A stretch of DNA of 61,612 nucleotides, filler included, from a bacterium (GTDB lineage: Bacteria; JACRDZ01; JAQUKH01), in NCBI GenBank assembly GCA_028719205.1. It is 3 parts of 3 records of this genome, joined end to end, with 100 filler letters (N's around TTAATTAATTAA, not from the genome) between each part and the next. Parts side by side here need not be neighbours in the genome. Positions count along the whole stretch, not along the records: positions 23,081 to 42,638 come from JAQUKH010000039.1; 2 more parts are not named here. One strand, 5' to 3'. The first letter of the stretch is position 1. Every line of letters starts with the position of its first letter. Both the position numbers and the translations under genes were made by a program. Shown here one piece after another: positions 22,981 through 45,723 of this stretch. The notes under the pieces are model-generated. The model was not told where the DNA came from. It saw only the letters and a program-made list of their open reading frames with translations, and did no database searches.

Positions 22981-23080
22981 NNNNNNNNNNNNNNNNNNNN
23001 NNNNNNNNNNNNNNNNNNNNNNNNTTAATTAATTAANNNNNNNNNNNNNNNNNNNNNNNNNNNNNNNNNNNNNNNNNNNN
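22981..23080. other. Artificial contig linker
   Basis: N44-TTAATTAATTAA-N44; genes on both sides are truncated. Confidence 0.95.
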
Positions 23081-33880: not shown

Positions 33881-36229
33881 TCATATCTTTGTGAAATCTA
33901 CACCGGGATTATCTAATACTCTCTTGAGTCCGGCTAATTTCGGTATGGGTTTTTCTTCTTGCGCGGAAAGCGGCTGTTCGACCGGAAGATAAATATAAAA
34001 AGTTGTACCAAGATTTAATTGGCTTTTGATCTCGATCATCCCGTTATGATCCGCAATGATCTGATGTGAAATAGACAGGCCAAGGCCGGTTCCATCGTCT
34101 TTAGTCGTAAAAAAAGGCGTAAACAGATTCCCAAGATTTTCTTCGCTTATACCTTCACCTGTATCACTTATATCAATCCTGATATAATCCTTACCTTTTA
34201 TATCTATCTTTTGAGTAGAAACAGATAAAGTTCCGCCCTTCTTCATAGCTTCGATCGCATTCATAAAAAAATTAATAAAAACCTGCTTCATTTTTTCCGG
34301 ATCAAACATAATCATAGGGATCTTGACATCATAATGTTTTTCGAACTTTACATTTTTCCGTTTAGTTTCCATTGCTACAAATATTATTATCTTTTCTATA
34401 AAGACATTTAGGTTTTCTGATACTAATTTAGCCCCTTTTTTTCTTGAAAATCCCAGGATCTCGTCAACTAAGCGGGAAATTCTGTCTGCCTCGCCCATCG
34501 CGAGTTTATAAAAATCAGTCTTGAATTCTTCATTATCACAACGTTCAGGGAAAAGCTGAAAGAAGGTTTTGATCGTCCCCAGCGGATTCCGGATCTCATG
34601 CGCTACGCCTGAAACAAGAAGCCCAAGCGACGCAAGTTTATCCATATGCCTTACCATCTGAAACCTCTGGGTATCCATTTCAATAAGCTGCGCGTTTTGG
34701 ATCGCTACCGCAGCCTGGGTGCTTAAGGTGTTAAGAAGCACCAGATCCTCATCTGAATAAGCATCTTTATTACCCTTCATATCCATGCTGATTATTCCGA
34801 CCAATTTATCATGCAAAAATAGCGGGATAGATATCTCCGCTGAGATCATCTTCATTTCTTTCACAATGAACCAGTAATTTAATCTTTTCCATTCTTTTTC
34901 CGAAAGCCCTGATATTTCTCTTTTATTTTCCACCTCTTTTTCTTCTTGCCCTTCAGCATCTTGCTTCTGACTTTCTTTATATTTCTTTATCGCATCCTGA
35001 TAAACCGGTTCTTCGAGCATCCGTTCTCTTTCCTCTTTGATTATAATTTTCTTTGTATCTTTCATCGCGTCAATAAAATGATCAGAAGGCATGATTTTAA
35101 AAGAATCAATTAATTCCTGTTCCAATCCGTTTGAATAAAATATTTTATAATTATTCTTTTTTTGATCTAGCGCGATGATCGAGATCTTGTTTACTTCAAA
35201 CGCCCTGTTTAATTGCTCCACAATAACTTTAAGCAGGCTATGCAGATCTAAAACATTTACAATAGCATTATTTAACTCATCAATAACTTCTTTGTAATCG
35301 TATTTTTCCCTAAAAAATATATCTTTAAATTTCTTCTGCATTTTGGCTATAATTTTTGGGTAAAATAAACTGACAATTAAAGTAATCAAAAATACAGTAA
35401 TACTTATCCACCAATTAAATACCACCATATTATGATTTGTAATTCCTCCAAAAAGGTAATCTTCCCATGCAAGCAATACCGGAACGAATAAAAGCGCCGT
35501 TAAAATTGATAAAACAAAATAAGTTGCAGCTTTGGTGATAATTGCGTGGATGTCCAGAAGATGATGGCGAACAATAGCATAGGTCATAATCAAAAGATAA
35601 CCTATTGATATGAAGTTATCAATGGGAGGAACTTCGATTCCAAATAAATTTAAAAAAACTACTATTATTGCTAAAATACCTACAGATGAAGCTAATAGAA
35701 AATATTTTATTTGGGTCTTCTTTAATCCTGTAGTTCTTTTATAATAATAAATCAATTTATAAAACCAATAGCAAATAACCCAAACAGTAAATAATGTTAC
35801 GAGGTTATATAATATACCAGGTTTTGGGAAATATCTGCTATAGCTTGTTGTTTTTTCAAGAATTAGGTCATTTAACATAAATGGAGTAAATAAAGTTAAA
35901 ACCCATAATAAGAGAGGAAAATAATTTAGAAAATATCTAAAATATTTTTTAGGTGATTCATCAAAAATTGAGAGACTAAGTCTAGCAAAAGCTGAAGGGA
36001 AAAATATAGTGCCAATATGCAGGAATTTTATTATATAAAGATATAGAGTTTTATCTATGGGTAATTTTAATGCCAATAAAAAATCAGATATAGCCCAAAT
36101 TCCTGTTGTTAGGCATACAAAAGCATAAGCTCTATTTTGATTCCCATATCTATTTCTAAAAAAAACAAAAGTACCTAATAAAAAATAGGCTAATAAAACT
36201 ATTAAAGTTGATATTGAATAATAATCCAT
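33881..36229 (-). CDS. Sensor histidine kinase: N-terminal multi-TM (HisKA_7TM-like) + GAF + HisKA + HATPase_c
   Basis: About 8-9 hydrophobic segments ending near YAIVRHHLLDI; GAF (IPLF..LVGII..YSDED); AHEIRNPL, QVFINFFMNA, DTGEGI, FTPFFTTK, GTGLGL. Confidence 0.9.
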   Translation of the reverse strand: MDYYSISTLIVLLAYFLLGTFVFFRNRYGNQNRAYAFVCLTTGIWAISDFLLALKLPIDKTLYLYIIKFLHIGTIFFPSAFARLSLSIFDESPKKYFRYFLNYFPLLLWVLTLFTPFMLNDLILEKTTSYSRYFPKPGILYNLVTLFTVWVICYWFYKLIYYYKRTTGLKKTQIKYFLLASSVGILAIIVVFLNLFGIEVPPIDNFISIGYLLIMTYAIVRHHLLDIHAIITKAATYFVLSILTALLFVPVLLAWEDYLFGGITNHNMVVFNWWISITVFLITLIVSLFYPKIIAKMQKKFKDIFFREKYDYKEVIDELNNAIVNVLDLHSLLKVIVEQLNRAFEVNKISIIALDQKKNNYKIFYSNGLEQELIDSFKIMPSDHFIDAMKDTKKIIIKEERERMLEEPVYQDAIKKYKESQKQDAEGQEEKEVENKREISGLSEKEWKRLNYWFIVKEMKMISAEISIPLFLHDKLVGIISMDMKGNKDAYSDEDLVLLNTLSTQAAVAIQNAQLIEMDTQRFQMVRHMDKLASLGLLVSGVAHEIRNPLGTIKTFFQLFPERCDNEEFKTDFYKLAMGEADRISRLVDEILGFSRKKGAKLVSENLNVFIEKIIIFVAMETKRKNVKFEKHYDVKIPMIMFDPEKMKQVFINFFMNAIEAMKKGGTLSVSTQKIDIKGKDYIRIDISDTGEGISEENLGNLFTPFFTTKDDGTGLGLSISHQIIADHNGMIEIKSQLNLGTTFYIYLPVEQPLSAQEEKPIPKLAGLKRVLDNPGVDFTKI

Positions 36230-36232
36230 TTT

Positions 36233-37444
36233 TTAAATAATTTCCAGTTTTTTCCCAACTTTTTCAAGTTTATTCAACAAATAATCTATTTGCTTTTTTG
36301 TATGTGTAGACATAAGTGAAAACCTGATTCTCGCCTTTCCTAAAGGAACAGCAGTATATCTAACACATAAGGCAAAGATACCTTCTTCAAATAATAACTT
36401 TGCCATTTCAATTGCCATTTTTTCATCCCCGATTAAAATCGGTATAATCTGGCTTTCGCTCTCCATCGTATCAAATCCTAATCTTTTAAACCCATTTCGT
36501 GTATAATTAATATTGTCCCAAAGTTTTTCCCTTAATTCAGGATGTTTTTCAATCTCTTCTATTGCCGCATTGACTCCCGCCATCATCGCGAATGCCGGCG
36601 AAGCGGTAAAAATATATGACCGTGCGGATATTCTTAAAAAATCAACCAGATCTTTTGAACTTGCAATAAAACCGCCAACTCCTCCCAATGTCTTACTAAA
36701 AGTTCCCATTTTAATATCAATTTCTTTTTCCAGGCCAAAATGTTCTGCCAAACCATGGCCATGTTTCCCAAAGATTCCTGTCCCATGAGCCTCATCCAGC
36801 ATAATTAAAGCGTTATATTTTCTAGCCAAGCTTACTATTTCAGGTAACGGAGCAATATCACCATCTAAACTAAAAACTGATTCAGTAATAATCAGCTTAT
36901 TTCTATTATTTTTATTATCTTTTAAAATCTTTTCTAATTCTTTTAAATCTTTATGTCTATAAATGGCTTTATCAACATTAGCCAAATGGCAACCATCAAT
37001 TATACACGCATGATTTAATTCATCGCTTATAATCAATCCTTTATCTAATTTTTTATTTATCCCTAAAGCCTGCTGCCACTTATCTAATCCATTGAACATA
37101 GCAGGAATTATACCTAAATTAACAGTATAACCTGTTGAAAAAACTATTGCAGATTCTGTTTTCTTAAATTCAGCAATTTTTCTTTCAAGTTTTTCATGGA
37201 TATCACTCGTCCCACTCATTAATCTTGCGCTACATGGACTTAATCCATATTTTTTTATTGCTTTAATTGCTGCGTTTGTAACATTTTTATTCGTCGATAG
37301 CCCCAGATAGTTATTCGAACAAAAAAGCAAATATTTTTTACCATCAATAATTACCTCTGGTTTTGGAGAACTACATACAGTCTTAATCTCCGGATACAAT
37401 CCTTTTTCTTTGATTAAATTAACAACATGTCTAATTTCTTCCAT
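36233..37444 (-). CDS. PLP-dependent alpha-oxoamine synthase (BioF/Kbl/SPT/CqsA family)
   Basis: FCSNNYLGL, SDELNHACIIDG, ESVFSLDGD, LDEAHG, GTFSKTLG (PLP lysine). Confidence 0.9.
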   Translation of the reverse strand: MEEIRHVVNLIKEKGLYPEIKTVCSSPKPEVIIDGKKYLLFCSNNYLGLSTNKNVTNAAIKAIKKYGLSPCSARLMSGTSDIHEKLERKIAEFKKTESAIVFSTGYTVNLGIIPAMFNGLDKWQQALGINKKLDKGLIISDELNHACIIDGCHLANVDKAIYRHKDLKELEKILKDNKNNRNKLIITESVFSLDGDIAPLPEIVSLARKYNALIMLDEAHGTGIFGKHGHGLAEHFGLEKEIDIKMGTFSKTLGGVGGFIASSKDLVDFLRISARSYIFTASPAFAMMAGVNAAIEEIEKHPELREKLWDNINYTRNGFKRLGFDTMESESQIIPILIGDEKMAIEMAKLLFEEGIFALCVRYTAVPLGKARIRFSLMSTHTKKQIDYLLNKLEKVGKKLEII

Positions 37445-37465
37445 AGTATCCCTCTTTTTATTTTA

Positions 37466-38926
37466 TTAGAATTTTAATTTTTTTGCATAATTATGTAAGC
37501 TTATTGTCCCTAATAATGATGAAAGCGAAGGCTCTTTTTTATTTATTAAACCTTTCCATAAAATTTTATTAGATTCCCAATCTTGAGATAAAAGACTTTT
37601 TAGAAAAAGGGAAAAACCATTTTTAGTAAATATTTTACGTTTATTACCATTCTTTTTTACTAAAATACCCTTATCCCATAAACTTCCAAATCTTTTATTG
37701 ATTGACTTATAGGAATATAGTTCTCGCATTAACCAGATATATCCTTTTTGCAAAGCTTCATTGGAGATTAGTTTAGGTTTAAAACAAACTACACCACAAC
37801 TATAATTATTCCAATCTTCGTTAAGAATTCTTCCTTCATCCTTTAATCTTTTATATAATCGTGTCCCTGGGAAAGGGGTCAAAACAGTTATTTGGGGGAA
37901 AGCAATACTATTATCTTCTATAAAATCTTTTATTTTTTCAAATGAACTTTCATCCGCAGAATCATCCCCTAAAATAAAAGCACCTATAATAGAAATTTTA
38001 TTATTATGAATATTATCAATTATTTTAGAATAGTTTTCAACTTTATTTATTTTAGGCTTATTCACCTGTTCTAAATTTTTTTCAGATAAAGATTCAAAAC
38101 CCAAAAGCAGCTGTCTACAGCCGCTTTTATACATAATATCTAACAATTCAGAATCAATTCCAACATCAACAGCTGCTTGTCCTACCCAATGAATGTTATA
38201 TGGAATTAAAGCTTCGAAAAGTTCTCGCGCATATTTTTTATTGGCAGTAATATTATCATCAGAAAAAAAGAAGATCTTATTTTTTTTTATTTTTAATAAC
38301 AATTCAATTTCTTTAATAATATTTGCAATTGGCTTATAACGGTATTCTTTCCCAAAAAACAATTTTACTGAGCAAAAATCACAGTCAAATGGACAACCTC
38401 TCGTTGTCTGGATTGTATGATAAGTATATGAATCTGTCTTTACTAAATCCCACCTTGGAATCGGTGAATTTTCTAATTTTGGTTTACTATTACTCGAGTA
38501 AGTCTTTTTTAAGTTATTTTCTTTAAAATCATTTAATAATTCCCCCCAAACCTCCTCTGCTTCTCCAATAACCACTGAATCAGCATGTTGAAGAGCTTCT
38601 TCCGGCAACACCGAGGTATGTATACCTCCTAAAACTACAGTAACATTTCTTTTTCTGTATGTATCAGCAATTTCATAAGCACGATTTACCGTATAAGTAT
38701 TTGTAGTTATACCTACTAAATCAACTTTTTCGTCAAAATCAATATGTTCAATATTTTCATCGCAAATTTCGACATCTATTCCAGAAGGTGTAAGTGCGGC
38801 TAATGTAGGTAATGCTAAACTAATTTGAGAATATCTTTTATTTGTTAATTTTGCAAATGTACCCATTTCCCAAAAATTAGAAATACCTGATTTTTTATTG
38901 CTTGCAGCAATCAATTTTATCTTCAT
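37466..38926 (-). CDS. Cobalamin-binding radical SAM enzyme
   Basis: B12-binding domain (LPTLAALTP, DLVGIT, VVLGGIH, VIGEAE) plus TTRGCPFDCDFC, FFSDDN, LTPFPGT. Confidence 0.9.
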   Translation of the reverse strand: MKIKLIAASNKKSGISNFWEMGTFAKLTNKRYSQISLALPTLAALTPSGIDVEICDENIEHIDFDEKVDLVGITTNTYTVNRAYEIADTYRKRNVTVVLGGIHTSVLPEEALQHADSVVIGEAEEVWGELLNDFKENNLKKTYSSNSKPKLENSPIPRWDLVKTDSYTYHTIQTTRGCPFDCDFCSVKLFFGKEYRYKPIANIIKEIELLLKIKKNKIFFFSDDNITANKKYARELFEALIPYNIHWVGQAAVDVGIDSELLDIMYKSGCRQLLLGFESLSEKNLEQVNKPKINKVENYSKIIDNIHNNKISIIGAFILGDDSADESSFEKIKDFIEDNSIAFPQITVLTPFPGTRLYKRLKDEGRILNEDWNNYSCGVVCFKPKLISNEALQKGYIWLMRELYSYKSINKRFGSLWDKGILVKKNGNKRKIFTKNGFSLFLKSLLSQDWESNKILWKGLINKKEPSLSSLLGTISLHNYAKKLKF

Positions 38927-38944: not shown

Positions 38945-39340
38945 TTATTTCTCTATTTCTTCCATGATTGATTTTACTAATTCTTTCGTATCTTCCAGAA
39001 TTTGCCCTAATTCTTTCTTATCCAATTTTGAAGCCATCAAAACAGGATATTCATCGTCAGGCCAATGTTTTTTCATAACCTCATGTAACAACTGAAATTT
39101 CTCAAAGATATTATTGCATGATTCCGCCTCGCTGAAAAGCTGGCCGATCTCCTGAATTTCTTTGACACTTTCCGCTTTATAAAAAGCGTAACCTGTCATA
39201 TATTTCCCGACTGCCTCCTGAAGATGAGCGCAGGCTAATGCCAGATTCTCTTCCTCAAGCTGATCCTCCGCGTCAGAAAAATCTTCACCCGCTTTTGAGA
39301 AATAATCCTTGTAACGATAGAAAGATTTATCTTCCTGCAT
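38945..39340 (-). CDS. HEPN-like domain protein (degenerate)
   Basis: A.EDF..AE..L....ACAHLQEAVGKY resembles the HEPN N-terminal helices; SD AGGAGGT. Confidence 0.55.
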   Translation of the reverse strand: MQEDKSFYRYKDYFSKAGEDFSDAEDQLEEENLALACAHLQEAVGKYMTGYAFYKAESVKEIQEIGQLFSEAESCNNIFEKFQLLHEVMKKHWPDDEYPVLMASKLDKKELGQILEDTKELVKSIMEEIEK

Positions 39341-39368: not shown

Positions 39369-40202
39369 CTAAATACCAAAATCCAAACCTCCTCCGGCAA
39401 TAATAAAAAACCCATTTTTTCTATTAGGATCGGATAAATAAACTCCTGACTGAATAAATAGCCTTGGATTTTTCCTGCCCCATATAATATCATTTGGGAT
39501 GTAATACAATATCCCGCCTAAACGTTTACTTACGAGATCAGTATTATCGGTACGCACAAATTCATAATAAGGTCCCATGATAAGAATTTTTTTATCGTTC
39601 TCATTTATAACCTCATAAAGCACTTGCAATTTATTCGCGATTATACTATCCTTTTTTTCAACGAGCAGATCATATTGATTAACCAGAAAATTCGGCCCGT
39701 CTCCGTAAAAAGAATAACGCGTAAGGTCTGTTTGATTTACAAGAATTACTTTTCCTAACTTCATTTGTAACGTCGGCTGGATCAATGCCGCGTTACTGCT
39801 TCCTGTATCTTCGTTCCCTTTATATTCTTTTCTTATACTATCTCCAAAATCAGACGTGGAATCAAAGGAAAGTTTATAATTCCCGAAATAAGTGGAGGCG
39901 TCATAACCCAAACGCAATTTAAATATCGCGATGGGCAGCCATTCCAAAGAAACAGAGCCCGTTAAATAAGCAGGCGTTACAGTTACACCAAGGCCCTCCT
40001 GAAAATATAAACCATTCCAGATGGGAGAAGTATCTTTATGATATATATAGCGATTATCCAGTTCAATTATGCCTGCCAATCCGATAGGATTATACTGGGT
40101 AATAATATCAGCCGCTATTTTTGCTTTAGCTTCCGCACTCGTCTTGTTTGAAAAAGAAAACAAGATCATAAAAATAAAAAATATAATTATTTTTATTTTC
40201 AT
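39369..40202 (-). CDS. Hypothetical secreted/outer-membrane beta-barrel protein
   Basis: Signal peptide, beta-strand pattern, ends GGLDFGI. Confidence 0.5.
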   Translation of the reverse strand: MKIKIIIFFIFMILFSFSNKTSAEAKAKIAADIITQYNPIGLAGIIELDNRYIYHKDTSPIWNGLYFQEGLGVTVTPAYLTGSVSLEWLPIAIFKLRLGYDASTYFGNYKLSFDSTSDFGDSIRKEYKGNEDTGSSNAALIQPTLQMKLGKVILVNQTDLTRYSFYGDGPNFLVNQYDLLVEKKDSIIANKLQVLYEVINENDKKILIMGPYYEFVRTDNTDLVSKRLGGILYYIPNDIIWGRKNPRLFIQSGVYLSDPNRKNGFFIIAGGGLDFGI

Positions 40203-41866: not shown

Positions 41867-42638
41867 TTAAAACAGAACATTAGCTCCTAATCTAACCGTG
41901 CCGGATTTTAAAGTATAACTTCCGGGCAAATTATCAATTACACCATCTCCATCAACATCCTGAACATCAATAACCCTGCTTTTCGCGGTCAAATATTCAT
42001 ACCCGCAGATAAATTCCACAGTTTTAGTGCTATACCCTAATGACAGTTCTATGGCCTGTTTAGTTCCGCTATCTCCGATCCATGGGGTCAAGGTCTTATC
42101 AGGGATCGGGCTTGGATCAATATAATATCCGGTATAAACATTTAAATTATTATCAATTTTATAATTCAAACCCACACTGTATCTTATAGTATTTTTCCAA
42201 TCATTTATTAATGTACTGGTTGGACTTATTAATGCTCCGGGACTATCGTTATTTATAATAAATCTGTCATAACTGGACCATTCAGTCCAATCCACATCAA
42301 AAGAAACTGTTGATTTTTCTTCCGGCCTGTAAACCATACCAAATCCAAGATTTGCCGGTAAAGCTATTTTGGTGGAAGAGGAAGATCTTTCTGAAACAAT
42401 AACACCCATGCCCGGGGCATAAGCGTTAACCTCTGTATCCCCGCTGAGTTTAACACTTGTAGCGGAACGGTAAGTCAATCCTAATGTGAACTCTTTGTTA
42501 ACCTTGCACAAAACTCCGATATTTCCGCCATATCCCCAGCCATCGCCTTTTAAACGGCTATCAACCGGAATATTTAATCCCGTTAACAATGTATCAAATG
42601 ATGCCCCCGGCAAAATTGTGGGGCCTCTTTGTTCGATA
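41867..42638 (-). CDS. FadL/OmpP1-family outer-membrane transporter (5' truncated)
   Basis: GDGWGYGGNIG, LGLTYRS, LPANLGFG, DVDWTEWSSYD, DPSPIPD, C-terminal F. Confidence 0.8.
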
Positions 42639-42738
42639 NNNNNNNNNNNNNNNNNNNNNNNNNNNNNNNNNNNNNNNNNNNNTTAATTAATTAANNNNNN
42701 NNNNNNNNNNNNNNNNNNNNNNNNNNNNNNNNNNNNNN
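42639..42738. other. Artificial contig linker
   Basis: N44-TTAATTAATTAA-N44, identical to the first linker. Confidence 0.95.
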
Positions 42739-42756: not shown

Positions 42757-45723
42757 TTACAACTCAATACTATTTTCCCTTGCTTTTTTGAGCAATTCAT
42801 CATCACTGCTGCCATCATCCGGATATGTCGCGTATCCGAATTCTAATTTAACCTTGTCGGCCAGGTTCTTCTTATCTAAATAATCATAGGCTGCCTGCTC
42901 CAGTCTGCCCTCAACTATCAACGCTCCTTCCTTACCGCATCCTACCATAATTATTATATCTTCTGATTCCTTAAAAATCATATCTCCGGCCCCGCGCAGG
43001 CCATTTCTTAAAACATCTTCCAATTCTCTCAGGATATGTTCTTTCTTCTCTCCTGATAAATCCTTTGATGTTTCAGTAAAAACAGTAATAATGGACATTT
43101 TTATATGATCCTTCATTGCCTCTTTTATCCCTTTATTAATCGATTCCTTGAAAACCATTTCTCTGGTATATTTTGGCAAAGTAAAGATGAACCTGGTGCC
43201 CCTGCCAAGCTGGCTTTCAATCCAGATCTTTCCGTTATGCAGCTCCACCAGCGACTTGGCTATTGAAAGGCCTAAACCGGTTCCTTTTTCACCGGTTCCC
43301 GGAATTCGGCCAAATTGCTGGAATTTGTTGAACACTTTTGGCAAGTCATCTCCTGAGATCCCGATACCGGAATCAGCCACAGTACACTCTATCTCATTTT
43401 CTTTTTCTATAACTGATACCTCTATATATCCCTTTTCTACAAACTTCATGGCATTGGACATAAGATTGGTAAAGATCTGGATTACCTTTCCCTCATCAGC
43501 ATAGATTTCTATTTGTTCTTTAGGAAGTCTGACTTTTAATTCTAAACCCTTGTCATTTGCCTGCTTAGAAAAAGAAAAGATAATCCCGCTGATCAATTCG
43601 TTAAGATTAACTGAAGCTCTCTTTAGTTCTAACTTTCCTGCCTCGATCTTTGAAATATCCAAAAGGCTATTGATAATATTTGTCAACCTGTCTATATTAT
43701 TCTTCGCGATAGTAAGAAACTTCTCTTGTTTTTCATTTAGCTCCCCCAGGGTTTTATCCAAAACAAGGCTAAGGCCCTCTTTTGTAATAGAAAGCGGTGT
43801 CCTGAGTTCATGGGAGACTATAGAAATAAATTCGGTCTTCATACGGTCAACTTCCTTTTCCTTTGTAATATCCCTCAAAACCGTAAGTATACCTATAGGC
43901 TCTCCGTGTTCGTTTTTTACCTGTGTCGTTTCGCAGGATAAAATTACAGTTTCTCCCTGTAAATTAACCGAGATCTCCCCGGAACCTTCGTCCTTATATA
44001 ATTTATTGTCTTCAATCTTTTCTTTCCATTCAGCGGCGCTTATTTGTTGTTCCGCAAAACCCAAATTTAAAAATTGTCTTGCCCGCGGATTTATAACCAC
44101 TACCTCGCCGCGTTCATCAACCATTACAACGCCTTCAGTCATACCATGGACCATGCTGTCCATCTTATATTTTTCGGCGTTAATAACTGCCTGCAATCTT
44201 TCGATGGCATTGGAGGTCTGGTTAGTTATTGTGTAAATAAGCCTGATGTCGTTTTCTTTAAAGGAATTATCTGTGCAATTTGAGATATTTATCATACCTA
44301 CGATCTTACCGCGCACGATAAACGGCACATTAAAAAAAGACCTCACTTTGTCGGATAATCTATTTTTGCCCGGACCGGTATTAGAGTCCAAGGGAACAAT
44401 AAAAGTGTTTATCCGTTTCTTCCTGATCTCTTTGCCGGTAAAGAGAGAAACGGAATCAAGAAGGTTATTCTTGATCTCATCAGCAAATTTCACACTGCCG
44501 GGATAGGCGGGCTTTATGGTTATATTGGCTGTATTTTCATCAAATAAAAGCGAGGCGCATATATCATAGTTTATGACCTTAAATAGGGCTTCCATAATAA
44601 GCTTCAAAAGCGTCTGGTAATCCAGCGTATAGGAAATAGCATTGGATACTTCATTGGATACTTCATGAAGAATGGCTAATTCCGAGGTCCGTTCTTCTAT
44701 CTTTTCCTCAAGGTCTTTAGTAAATGATTCCAATTTTTTATTCGCTTCCCCAAGTTCCTTGGACTGTTCCTCGATCTTTTCTTTTTCTTTCCCCAGATCT
44801 TCCAGTATGCTTAAGATCGCCTCCCGGGACTGAGCCAGGTCTTTGGTACGCTCCTCAATTTTTTTCTCCAAATTATCTGAGAACTCTTTGATCTCAGACT
44901 TAGATTTCTCTAAGTTATCTATAAGGGCTAATGTTTGACGCATATCACGGGCTATGCCGACAATACCAGTGATTCGTATGTCGCGGTTCGCGGTTAGTGT
45001 TTTGTTTGACGATTCATGATTTACGAATGACGAACCTTGAGATTCATACATCACTGAACCCGAGAAACTAACCGGAATCTTTTTCCCTCCCTTGGAAACG
45101 AAGGAGATACTTAGATCTCTGACCGACCCTGCCTCGATCAACTTCCTTAACCCGGCCTTACTAAAGATACTGTTCTGCTCTTCTTCAAGAAACATACCTA
45201 TTTCTCTGCCGATGAGTTCCTCTTCTTTATATTCCAATAAATCACAGGTTGACCTGTTTACCTTTTGTATTAATCCGTCCGGTGTAATTACGATCAAGGT
45301 GTCGGTCATTGAAGAAATGATGCCATCAAGATACGACTTGCCACCCAGGATCTCTTTTTGTTTTTCTTTTATCTTTAACACCATATGGCTGAAAGAATCC
45401 GCAAGATGGCCCATTTCATCATTTGTCGCGATCTCTATTTTAGTATCTAATTTGTCTTTTGCTATTTCAGCCATGGCATTTTCCAATTTTTTAATCGGAA
45501 GGGAAATCGACCGGGAAAGGAAGATACTGCCTAATAACGATATTGTGAATAAAATTATGACTGAGATTATTATAATAATTTTGACATTTAGCGATAAATT
45601 CACCTGATTTGTTAAATCATATTTTGTAATTAAATTTTGGTAATATATCGCAATTCCGCCAATAATGCCGACTAACAAGGAAATCCCTATAAATCCGATA
45701 GTTAATTTATGCCCTATTTTCAT
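42757..45723 (-). CDS. Sensor histidine kinase: 2TM-HAMP-PAS-coiled coil-GAF-PAS-HisKA-HATPase with degenerate GGDEF-like tail
   Basis: DEMGHLADSF (HAMP), VSHELRTPL, NLMSNAMKF, DSGIGI, GTGLGL, tail GYATYPDDG..DELLKKA. Confidence 0.9.
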   Translation of the reverse strand: MKIGHKLTIGFIGISLLVGIIGGIAIYYQNLITKYDLTNQVNLSLNVKIIIIISVIILFTISLLGSIFLSRSISLPIKKLENAMAEIAKDKLDTKIEIATNDEMGHLADSFSHMVLKIKEKQKEILGGKSYLDGIISSMTDTLIVITPDGLIQKVNRSTCDLLEYKEEELIGREIGMFLEEEQNSIFSKAGLRKLIEAGSVRDLSISFVSKGGKKIPVSFSGSVMYESQGSSFVNHESSNKTLTANRDIRITGIVGIARDMRQTLALIDNLEKSKSEIKEFSDNLEKKIEERTKDLAQSREAILSILEDLGKEKEKIEEQSKELGEANKKLESFTKDLEEKIEERTSELAILHEVSNEVSNAISYTLDYQTLLKLIMEALFKVINYDICASLLFDENTANITIKPAYPGSVKFADEIKNNLLDSVSLFTGKEIRKKRINTFIVPLDSNTGPGKNRLSDKVRSFFNVPFIVRGKIVGMINISNCTDNSFKENDIRLIYTITNQTSNAIERLQAVINAEKYKMDSMVHGMTEGVVMVDERGEVVVINPRARQFLNLGFAEQQISAAEWKEKIEDNKLYKDEGSGEISVNLQGETVILSCETTQVKNEHGEPIGILTVLRDITKEKEVDRMKTEFISIVSHELRTPLSITKEGLSLVLDKTLGELNEKQEKFLTIAKNNIDRLTNIINSLLDISKIEAGKLELKRASVNLNELISGIIFSFSKQANDKGLELKVRLPKEQIEIYADEGKVIQIFTNLMSNAMKFVEKGYIEVSVIEKENEIECTVADSGIGISGDDLPKVFNKFQQFGRIPGTGEKGTGLGLSIAKSLVELHNGKIWIESQLGRGTRFIFTLPKYTREMVFKESINKGIKEAMKDHIKMSIITVFTETSKDLSGEKKEHILRELEDVLRNGLRGAGDMIFKESEDIIIMVGCGKEGALIVEGRLEQAAYDYLDKKNLADKVKLEFGYATYPDDGSSDDELLKKARENSIEL
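44969..45040. repeat. Heptamer arrays in frame within the kinase PAS domain
   Basis: GTGATTC GTATGTC GCGGTTC GCGGTTA ... TTGACGA TTCATGA TTTACGA ATGACGA ACCTTGA. Confidence 0.6.

Follow-up and report, generated by a model that had tools for sequence, protein, structure and literature searches.

Gene content of the locus

The window analyzed here is a 61,612-nt stretch of DNA from a bacterial genome (GenBank assembly GCA_028719205.1; GTDB lineage JACRDZ01, JAQUKH01). Its 19.6-kb middle contig (JAQUKH010000039.1) carries three minus-strand genes that may together form a module for making and sensing a signal molecule: a radical S-adenosylmethionine (SAM) enzyme with a B12-binding domain, a pyridoxal 5'-phosphate (PLP)-dependent alpha-oxoamine synthase (AOS), and a sensor histidine kinase with a seven-transmembrane (7TM) sensor of the HisKA_7TM family (Table 1). 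A first reading of the DNA by itself (the sequence-only reading) had described these as co-directional and tightly packed, and open reading frame (ORF) calls confirmed this, with all three genes intact and gaps of 21 nt between the radical SAM and AOS genes and 3 nt between the AOS and kinase genes. It had also noted that no response regulator or biotin gene adjoins the trio, and none was found among the 11 neighboring ORFs scanned with Pfam and NCBIfam.

The window comprises three contigs joined by N runs at 22981-23080 and 42639-42738; hence, a PAS kinase at 42757-45723 is no physical neighbor of the trio. Along the minus strand, the order on the middle contig is FadL fragment, NadE, a 277-amino-acid (aa) protein, HEPN, radical SAM, AOS, kinase, CimA, and ValS. 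Because everything from NadE through ValS lies on the same strand, and genes are closely spaced in one direction throughout this contig, the packing of the trio weighs little by itself, and the weight lies in the comparative evidence. GC content is 0.30-0.34 over the cassette (34-40 kb), compared with 0.40-0.45 in both flanks. The host is not a member of the Candidate Phyla Radiation (CPR), given its genome of 2.6 Mb, the presence of LptF/G in a same-genus relative, and the FadL fragment in the window.

Table 1. Position and supporting evidence of the features described at the locus (window coordinates)
Feature	Position	Strand	Evidence
B12-binding-domain radical SAM enzyme, DUF4070 tail, 486 aa	37466..38926	-	Pfam, CxxxCxxC, AlphaFold2 model, tree
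Alpha-oxoamine synthase, 7TM-linked clade, 403 aa	36233..37444	-	PF00155, conserved catalytic residues, trees
HisKA_7TM-GAF-HisKA-HATPase sensor histidine kinase, 782 aa	33881..36229	-	Pfam
Kinase sensor region, residues 1-300	35330..36229	-	AlphaFold2 model, Foldseek, comparison with same-genus genome G001
HisKA (residues 535-597) and HATPase_c (residues 643-751)	33977..34627	-	Pfam coordinates converted to window
FadL/TodX-type outer-membrane channel fragment	41867..42613	-	Pfam Toluene_X 121.6 bits, profile positions 194-415 of 421
HEPN-domain gene and 277-aa ORF	38945-39340 and 39369-40202	-	Both within low-GC stretch

The AOS falls in a clade of its own

The AOS is a fold-type-I PLP enzyme (Pfam Aminotran_1_2, PF00155, 188 bits) and belongs to the AOS superfamily as judged by this domain, the PLP lysine, and the His/Asp/His residues, with H145, D217, H220, T248, and K251 invariant in a 25-sequence alignment. 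It scored below the curated NCBIfam cut-offs for TIGR01825 (443.5 bits, cut-off 535.4), Kbl (NF005394; 409.6 bits, cut-off 460), serine palmitoyltransferase (SPT, NF047600; 409.5 bits, cut-off 640), and the CqsA/LqsA type (NF005526; 186.7 bits, cut-off 428, compared with 628 for a genuine member, L193), and narrowly missed that of bioF (TIGR00858; 415.0 bits, cut-off 426.45). This last cut-off is a weak criterion, given the near miss and the fact that two kinase-linked members of the same clade, L178 and L093, exceed it (443.6 and 441 bits). Among 5.8 billion database proteins, one sequence was 70% identical and the others ≤56%; the closest named relatives are CPR and Omnitrophota proteins.

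A phylogeny of 149 rows was built from the AOS of 119 loci, 27 database matches, the window, and labeled references, leaving out the window's duplicate locus (L001) and rows shorter than 300 aa. References scoring above NCBIfam cut-offs included one CqsA-type, one Kbl, one 5-aminolevulinate synthase (ALAS), and several BioF proteins, while the SPT-like rows scored below theirs. FastTree placed the window AOS in a clade with a support of 99 that holds 34 rows (27 database rows lacking genomic context, six locus rows, and the window). Its sister is a 95-row group containing BioF, Kbl, and ALAS, with the SPT-like rows and CqsA outside. The same clade was recovered by IQ-TREE (LG+C20+F+G4, quick search, 62 rows; SH-aLRT 99), and in both trees the window AOS lay outside the group of BioF references. 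It was not grouped with CqsA either, which was represented by a single long-branched reference used as the outgroup. Taken together, the curated cut-offs and the trees support the prediction that this protein is not a BioF, Kbl, or SPT, in agreement with the sequence-only reading.

Nor is it the only copy in the genome. Two further AOS genes lie elsewhere: one is SPT-like (621 bits, cut-off 640), and the other, on contig G000:C20, resembles BioF (381 bits, with 329 of 365 positions covered) and is truncated at the contig end. The best AOS matches in two same-genus genomes (G001 and G002) were 44-45% identical, and no ortholog was found there. A non-housekeeping role is supported by these additional copies, the lack of a same-genus ortholog, and the GC dip.

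Deviations near the substrate pocket had been taken as a sign of a non-BioF substrate, and these fared differently. The loop insertion is a property of the clade, as 25-33 residues separate two motifs (31 of 34 rows measurable) compared with 15-17 in other AOS (74 of 115 rows measurable), giving 10-18 residues extra. The GLSPCSARL motif, on the other hand, occurs in the window protein only, with GLSPCSSRL in its closest relative (P0004), and NHAC is confined to the window protein; the remaining clade members retain G-x-G-x-G-S-R and NHAS. Hence, neither motif is a signature of the module.

The radical SAM enzyme resembles enzymes with diverse reactions

The radical SAM protein has a B12-binding domain (PF02310, 48.9 bits, cut-off 32.1), a Radical_SAM domain (PF04055, 64.4 bits), and DUF4070 (38 bits), in a family with hundreds of unannotated members (at least 605 matches). 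Its CxxxCxxC motif spans C178, C182, and C185, the first and last of which are invariant and the middle one nearly so. This cluster motif and the N-terminal B12-binding domain place it in class B, with cobalamin binding predicted. It scored below all NCBIfam cut-offs (e.g., HpnJ, 119/578, and BchE, 119/481).

An AlphaFold2 model of the enzyme (pLDDT 88.5) matched, in order, AprD4 (6fd2; TM score 0.72-0.77), MgmA, OxsB, CysS, TsrM, and TokK. AprD4 is a dehydratase that works without cobalamin. The methylated product envisaged at the outset was therefore not supported, since AprD4 ranks ahead of the methylases MgmA, CysS, TsrM, and TokK. Structure titles indicate that CysS and TokK were solved with pantetheinylated substrates, which makes action of the window enzyme on a thioester-bound chain plausible. 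On the strength of the modeled fold, the enzyme may thus tailor a thioester-bound acyl chain. The nearest solved sequence is 9CCB (MgmA/QCMT; E 1.8e-12, core only), described in the accessible part of its report as a glutamine C-methyltransferase (PMC12931638). Overall, the window enzyme and the solved class B enzymes (MgmA/QCMT 9ccb, CysS, TokK, TsrM, and OxsB), together with AprD4, share an N-terminal Rossmann B12-type domain and a barrel (TM score 0.6-0.77), although sequence similarity to the solved class B enzymes is low.

The kinase sensor diverges alongside a change of enzyme

The kinase matched HisKA_7TM (PF16927) at 37.0 bits (cut-off 28.6, residues 9-227), followed by a partial GAF domain, HisKA (43.4 bits), and HATPase_c (86.9 bits), and the H-box is visible in the translation. 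It is a HisKA_7TM kinase by its domain score, its seven modeled N-terminal helices, and its intact HisKA/HATPase core, which resembles AtoS, ZraS, and NtrB, and it is the only match above the cut-off in the genome. An AlphaFold2 model of residues 1-300 (54-sequence alignment; pLDDT 88.6, pTM 0.81) shows seven transmembrane helices, with a beta-hairpin between helices 4 and 5, and then two more helices. The top Foldseek matches were all 7TM bundles of G-protein-coupled receptors (GPCRs), namely GABA-B, CaSR, mGlu5, and chemokine receptors (E ~2e-3, TM score 0.43-0.51). The modeled sensor shape thus appears receptor-like rather than transporter- or enzyme-like, the match itself being weak. A rhodopsin-like mode, in which a Schiff-base lysine would bind an aldehyde or ketone, was considered and rejected, as the 54 aligned sensor sequences share no invariant or nearly invariant lysine. 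With 2,218 cluster representatives at E<=0.001 (532 at 1e-10), HisKA_7TM is a large family that includes free-standing and tandem sensor copies. No ligand for HisKA_7TM was found in the literature searched, where the term turns up in domain surveys only.

Same-genus genomes allow the locus to be compared among close relatives. On a 5.4-kb contig of G001, a radical SAM gene (47% identity) is followed by a 375-aa NAD_binding_4 reductase at the position of the AOS and by a 7TM-GAF-kinase (54%). In G002, a kinase with 65% identity immediately precedes CimA and ValS, the same order as in the window, and the contig ends inside the kinase. These identities compare with a same-genus baseline of 87-88% for CimA, 80-81% for ValS, and 81% for a nucleotidyltransferase. 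Between the window and G001 kinases, identity differs by region: 67/221 positions (30%) in the sensor (residues 1-230), 38/69 in helices 8-9, 84/140 in the linker, 59/70 at the end of the GAF domain, and 201/266 (76%) in the dimerization/phosphotransfer and catalytic regions (DHp+CA). Divergence specific to the sensor, in step with a change of the off-loading enzyme, is of all the observations the one that hints most strongly at a sensor reading the product of its neighbors; the argument rests on one genome pair.

Both enzymes are linked to 7TM kinases in other phyla

Gene linkage was assessed in loci that included the best 80 of radical SAM relatives and the best 80 of AOS relatives. In the AOS clade, a HisKA_7TM gene lies within 3 kb in all seven members with readable context (the window, L093, L094, L098, two copies in L106, and L178), compared with one weak case (L160) in the 95-row sister group. 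In a radical SAM tree of 118 rows, the window falls in a set of 30 with a support of 97 (the window, 26 database rows, L013, L014, and L175), and a 7TM kinase adjoins in 4/4 rows with context, from Spirochaetaceae (L013), Nitrospirota (L014), the same genus (L175), and the window. A search of 201 Omnitrophota genomes, with seven candidates scored per genome, gave four with a radical SAM match at E<=1e-100. Each of these lies within 3.5 kb of a 7TM kinase on the same strand, directly adjacent in L022, L205, and L206 and three genes away in L204. The HisKA_7TM model has ~500 matches in 159 of these 201 genomes, which are about 1-3 Mb in size. This corresponds to roughly one sensor gene per several hundred kilobases, so that chance adjacency for a given gene is of the order of 1%.

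These counts bear on the simplest alternative, that the three genes are chance neighbors, with a common BioF/Kbl-type AOS serving in housekeeping, a radical SAM enzyme that acts elsewhere, and a kinase unrelated to either. The narrow shortfall of the AOS against the bioF cut-off (415 vs 426.45) and the close packing of the whole contig on one strand fit this view. So do promoter and terminator scans, which gave no operon boundary signal above shuffled sequence (51 promoter-like sites vs 40.1±7.4, and 10 terminator-like sites vs 7.4±2.7). However, the recurrence of 7TM genes beside 7/7 AOS and 4/4 radical SAM clade members, the proximity of a 7TM kinase to all four strong Omnitrophota matches against a background of ~500 sensor matches in 201 genomes, the separate BioF-like gene in the genome, and the lack of adjoining biotin or threonine-degradation genes make coincidence very improbable. 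The linkage of the trio is real, not due to chance, and the kinase is its hub. Each pairwise link recurs in other phyla, which bears out the functional linkage first proposed for the trio, and the module probably occurs in many uncultured bacteria, judging from these genomes.

A tree of 21 sensors placed the window sensor with its genus and then with the radical-SAM-linked sensors L204 and L205 (SH-aLRT 87), not with AOS-linked sensors. This placement in a weak tree suggests that the AOS was recruited into a cassette of the radical SAM type.

Cassettes of relatives contain genes for acyl chain chemistry

Related loci are richer in genes than the window. One Omnitrophota cassette (L206) encodes FadL, acyl carrier protein (ACP), an acyl-AMP ligase, an NAD_binding_4 thioester reductase, a B12 radical SAM enzyme, a 7TM kinase, REC, and REC-HD-GYP, and another (L205) has the same type of core with a second 7TM kinase. 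A third (L204; G188:C1:642000-656000) combines a PilZ-ACP fusion, two genes for the D component of 2-hydroxyacyl-CoA dehydratase, and a BcrAD/BadFG activator ATPase with an AMP-binding ligase, a B12 radical SAM enzyme, a 7TM kinase, and a sigma-54 regulator; the fusion hints at control of the carrier protein by cyclic di-GMP. In a Spirochaetaceae metagenome-assembled genome (MAG), a FeeM-type N-acyl amino acid synthase gene (L013:9543-10409) lies between two B12 radical SAM genes and adjoins a 7TM-PAS hybrid kinase, and L014 has a ketoacyl-ACP synthase (KAS) and an outer-membrane channel. AOS-type cassettes include L098 (AMP-binding ligase, AOS, 7TM-GAF), L106 (three 7TM genes and two AOS genes), and L178 from Omnitrophota, in which an AOS (52% identity), a 257-aa protein, an ICMT/PEMT methyltransferase, a 7TM-GAF-kinase, REC, and GAF-HD-GYP follow one another.

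Several of these accessory genes recur, including AMP-binding ligases (L098, L179, and L204-L206), ACP (L204-L206), NAD_binding_4 thioester reductases (L175, L205, and L206), and ICMT/PEMT methyltransferases (L106 and L178), and they point to chemistry that would take place on carrier- or coenzyme A (CoA)-bound acyl chains. Downstream of the kinase, REC and GAF/REC-HD-GYP proteins are found in L022, L178, L179, L205, and L206, and sigma-54 regulators in L014 and L204. In three loci (L094:8208-8954, L106:4165-4929, and L178:8072-8845), the gene right after the AOS encodes a protein of ~250 aa; the three proteins are mutually homologous (25-38% identity), have no Pfam match, and are absent from the window. 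Their homology marks them as products of a conserved, as yet unnamed gene, a predicted accessory of the AOS-7TM cassette.

The trio has the appearance of a hybrid between two recurrent types of cassette. The first consists of ACP, acyl-AMP ligase, thioester reductase, B12 radical SAM enzyme, and 7TM kinase, and the second of acyl ligase, AOS, and 7TM kinase. An AOS off-loads an acyl chain as an amino ketone, and a thioester reductase off-loads it as an aldehyde or alcohol. By analogy, either enzyme would fill the same thioester off-loading slot in the two cassette types.

Outer-membrane channels, FadL or other, occur in L014, L179, and L206, and a full FadL opens the cassettes of L179 and L206. 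A FadL channel and an acyl-AMP/CoA ligase form a classic uptake-and-activation pair. This raises the alternative of a catabolic or scavenging module, in which an exogenous hydrophobic compound enters through FadL, is sensed by the kinase, and is converted or detoxified by the enzymes. The pairing of FadL-type channels with acyl-AMP/CoA ligases at the start of several cassettes (L179 and L206) would suit such a role, as would the FadL fragment 3 kb upstream of the trio. Nonetheless, AOS, thioester reductase, FeeM, and B12-domain radical SAM enzymes are biosynthetic or tailoring enzymes rather than enzymes of beta-oxidation, no degradative genes accompany them in the loci examined, and in the window three unrelated genes (NadE, the 277-aa secreted protein, and HEPN) stand between FadL and the trio, with no ligase. 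We therefore regard uptake as improbable. The FadL-like ORF, which is cut by the contig end at 42638, is tentatively a possible accessory part that passes a hydrophobic molecule.

A putative make-and-sense cassette

We propose that the trio makes and senses its own signal, a reading of the gene content to which we give about even chances. A fatty acyl thioester, bound to CoA or ACP, would be tailored by the B12-domain radical SAM enzyme, with C-methylation one option and a non-methylating radical reaction equally open. The AOS, following the chemistry of its family, would then condense the acyl group with an amino acid and release an alpha-amino ketone. This hydrophobic product could partition into the membrane, or exit and re-enter via a FadL-type channel, and would be bound by the GPCR-like HisKA_7TM domain. 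Binding would switch the kinase, leading to phosphorylation of a response regulator encoded elsewhere in the genome, while in relatives an adjacent REC protein would feed an HD-GYP enzyme or a sigma-54 activator. Candidate partners for the kinase are available, as the genome has at least four NtrC-type regulators and 14 HD-GYP-type proteins away from the locus.

A number of observations weigh against this proposal. The exact trio, with members of both enzyme clades and a 7TM kinase, was not found elsewhere, so of the predicted conservation of the three-gene linkage, the pairwise enzyme-kinase links held and the full set did not recur in the loci examined. Among the best 80 loci of each enzyme's relatives, one radical SAM locus also had an AOS nearby (L069, involving other clades), and no AOS locus had a nearby radical SAM relative. 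Two AOS and radical SAM relatives agree in the length of their longest contig (6526 for P0017 and P0146, 7895 for P0020 and P0144), but among some 120 x 120 pairs a few such coincidences could be due to chance, and they are given no weight. A further locus, L192, combines REC-PAS-LuxR, an AOS, a B12 radical SAM enzyme, a FemAB-like protein, a kinase, and a second B12 radical SAM enzyme, although its AOS and radical SAM enzymes come from other clades and its kinase sensor is not of the 7TM type. The counts of loci with readable context are small, and the relatives are not independent of one another. At the level of individual proteins, Foldseek returned no match for the sensor model at E<=0.001, and the GPCR likeness is weak; the best fold match of the radical SAM enzyme, the diol dehydratase AprD4, leaves methylation unsupported; and the passing bioF scores of L178 and L093 make BioF-like chemistry compatible by sequence. 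No response regulator, ACP, or acyl ligase was found beside the trio among the scanned neighbors, and no RNA sequencing run containing the locus was found, the sole full match being a DNA run.

Moreover, the adjacency of enzymes and kinase is equally compatible with a kinase that regulates the enzymes. In that case, the enzymes would make a membrane lipid or secondary metabolite (for example, a sphingoid-like or amino lipid, or a branched fatty aldehyde or alcohol), and the kinase would sense another cue, such as membrane state or an external compound, and control their expression. The kinases do share operons with lipid-type enzymes (PlsC-like acyltransferase, KAS, ACP, reductase, and ICMT/PEMT), the SPT-like AOS indicates that amino-lipid chemistry is in use in this genome, and the closest solved AOS relatives include SPT and promiscuous BioF/Kbl enzymes. 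Divergence of the sensor (30% identity vs 76% in the core) where the neighboring enzyme differs is, however, what would be expected if the product were sensed. In addition, in contrast to core lipid pathways, the cassettes are small, have a patchy distribution, and are missing from close relatives; several loci have multiple or free-standing sensor copies beside the enzymes; and the outputs are HD-GYP and REC signaling proteins rather than lipid genes. On balance, we regard such control of a lipid or metabolite pathway as the main rival to the make-and-sense proposal and consider it rather unlikely.

A broader picture may also be drawn, which we put forward tentatively and with less than even confidence. 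HisKA_7TM kinases could form a large, so far undescribed receptor family, GPCR-like in shape, whose ligands are lipid-like signals made by the cell itself; a small, interchangeable enzyme cassette (AOS, thioester reductase, FeeM, or B12 radical SAM enzyme, often with ACP and ligase) would be matched to each receptor. Swaps of the off-loading enzyme together with fast sensor divergence would then generate "dialects" even within a genus, and such quorum-sensing-like systems would extend across Omnitrophota, CPR, Nitrospirota, Spirochaetota, and the small candidate phylum of the present host.

Comparison with known systems

The closest parallels are CqsA/CqsS of Vibrio and LqsA/LqsS of Legionella, which have the same layout and the logic proposed here, an AOS-family PLP enzyme beside a polytopic membrane kinase. 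CqsA and LqsA make an acyl amino- or hydroxy-ketone that the adjacent kinase, CqsS or LqsS, senses. Unlike CqsA, the window AOS is far below the family cut-off (186.7 bits vs 428) and sits in a separate clade. The sensor of CqsS has six helices, whereas that of the window is a HisKA_7TM domain with a GPCR-like model, in line with the earlier suggestion of a CqsA/CqsS-like layout with a different receptor family. The window further differs from CqsA/CqsS in its additional B12-domain radical SAM enzyme and in having no nearby response regulator. Thus, the module would be CqsA/CqsS-like in its working and is, by sequence comparison, not a member of the CqsA family. In a Pelodictyon MAG (L207; G044:C11:1-7000), the 2.7 kb that follow the gene for a genuine CqsA-type synthase (628 bits) showed no obvious kinase ORF of ≥100 aa.

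Compared with BioF, Kbl, and the promiscuous Thermus AOS (PDB 7poa and 8s1y), its best solved sequence matches (E ~1e-92), the window AOS shares the catalytic residues and overall length, and its clade is sister to BioF/Kbl/ALAS. It differs from BioF and Kbl in scoring below the equivalog cut-offs, in its loop insertion, and in having no bio or tdh genes adjoining.

In CPR bacteria, 51 CqsA-homolog genes adjoin putative sensor kinases, and complete alpha-hydroxyketone systems have been proposed in silico (Bernard et al. 2020, PMC7567580); judging from the accessible text of that study, the idea of AOS-kinase signaling is already in print as a prediction. That text mentions neither a radical SAM partner, nor HisKA_7TM identity, nor enzyme swapping, and the pairs it describes are from CPR, whereas the present host is not. 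A Haloferax quorum-sensing two-component system (PMC13464002) was considered as a parallel and set aside because its kinase, according to the accessible part of the report, is cytosolic. No description of a module of AOS, histidine kinase, and radical SAM enzyme was found in the literature searched. New here are the finding that HisKA_7TM sensors have another, independent partner in a clade of B12-domain radical SAM enzymes, the view of AOS and thioester reductase as interchangeable off-loading enzymes, and sensor-specific divergence within one genus, in a non-CPR host.

If the proposal is true, the orphan HisKA_7TM domain would gain its first ligand class, many uncultured lineages would gain a candidate chemistry for cell-cell signaling, and one clade of B12-domain/DUF4070 radical SAM enzymes would gain a first biological setting. 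The locus offers a compact handle on these questions, with two enzymes, one receptor, and a same-genus partner in which a reductase replaces the AOS and the sensor has diverged.

Other features of the locus and related genomes

Between NadE and the trio, the 277-aa ORF precedes the HEPN gene, has a signal-peptide-like N-terminus, and gave no Pfam or NCBIfam match. It was considered as possible kin of the ~250-aa proteins found downstream of the AOS in L094, L106, and L178 and rejected, as BLAST gave no match. The HEPN gene has no nucleotidyltransferase partner beside it. In two genomes of the same phylum, matches to CimA/LeuA-type genes contain in-frame TAA codons (two in G004:C208:5262-6821, one in G004:C153:1205-2593, and one in G005:C205:3118-4623), which could reflect assembly error, pseudogenes, read-through of neighboring ORFs, or a change of genetic code.

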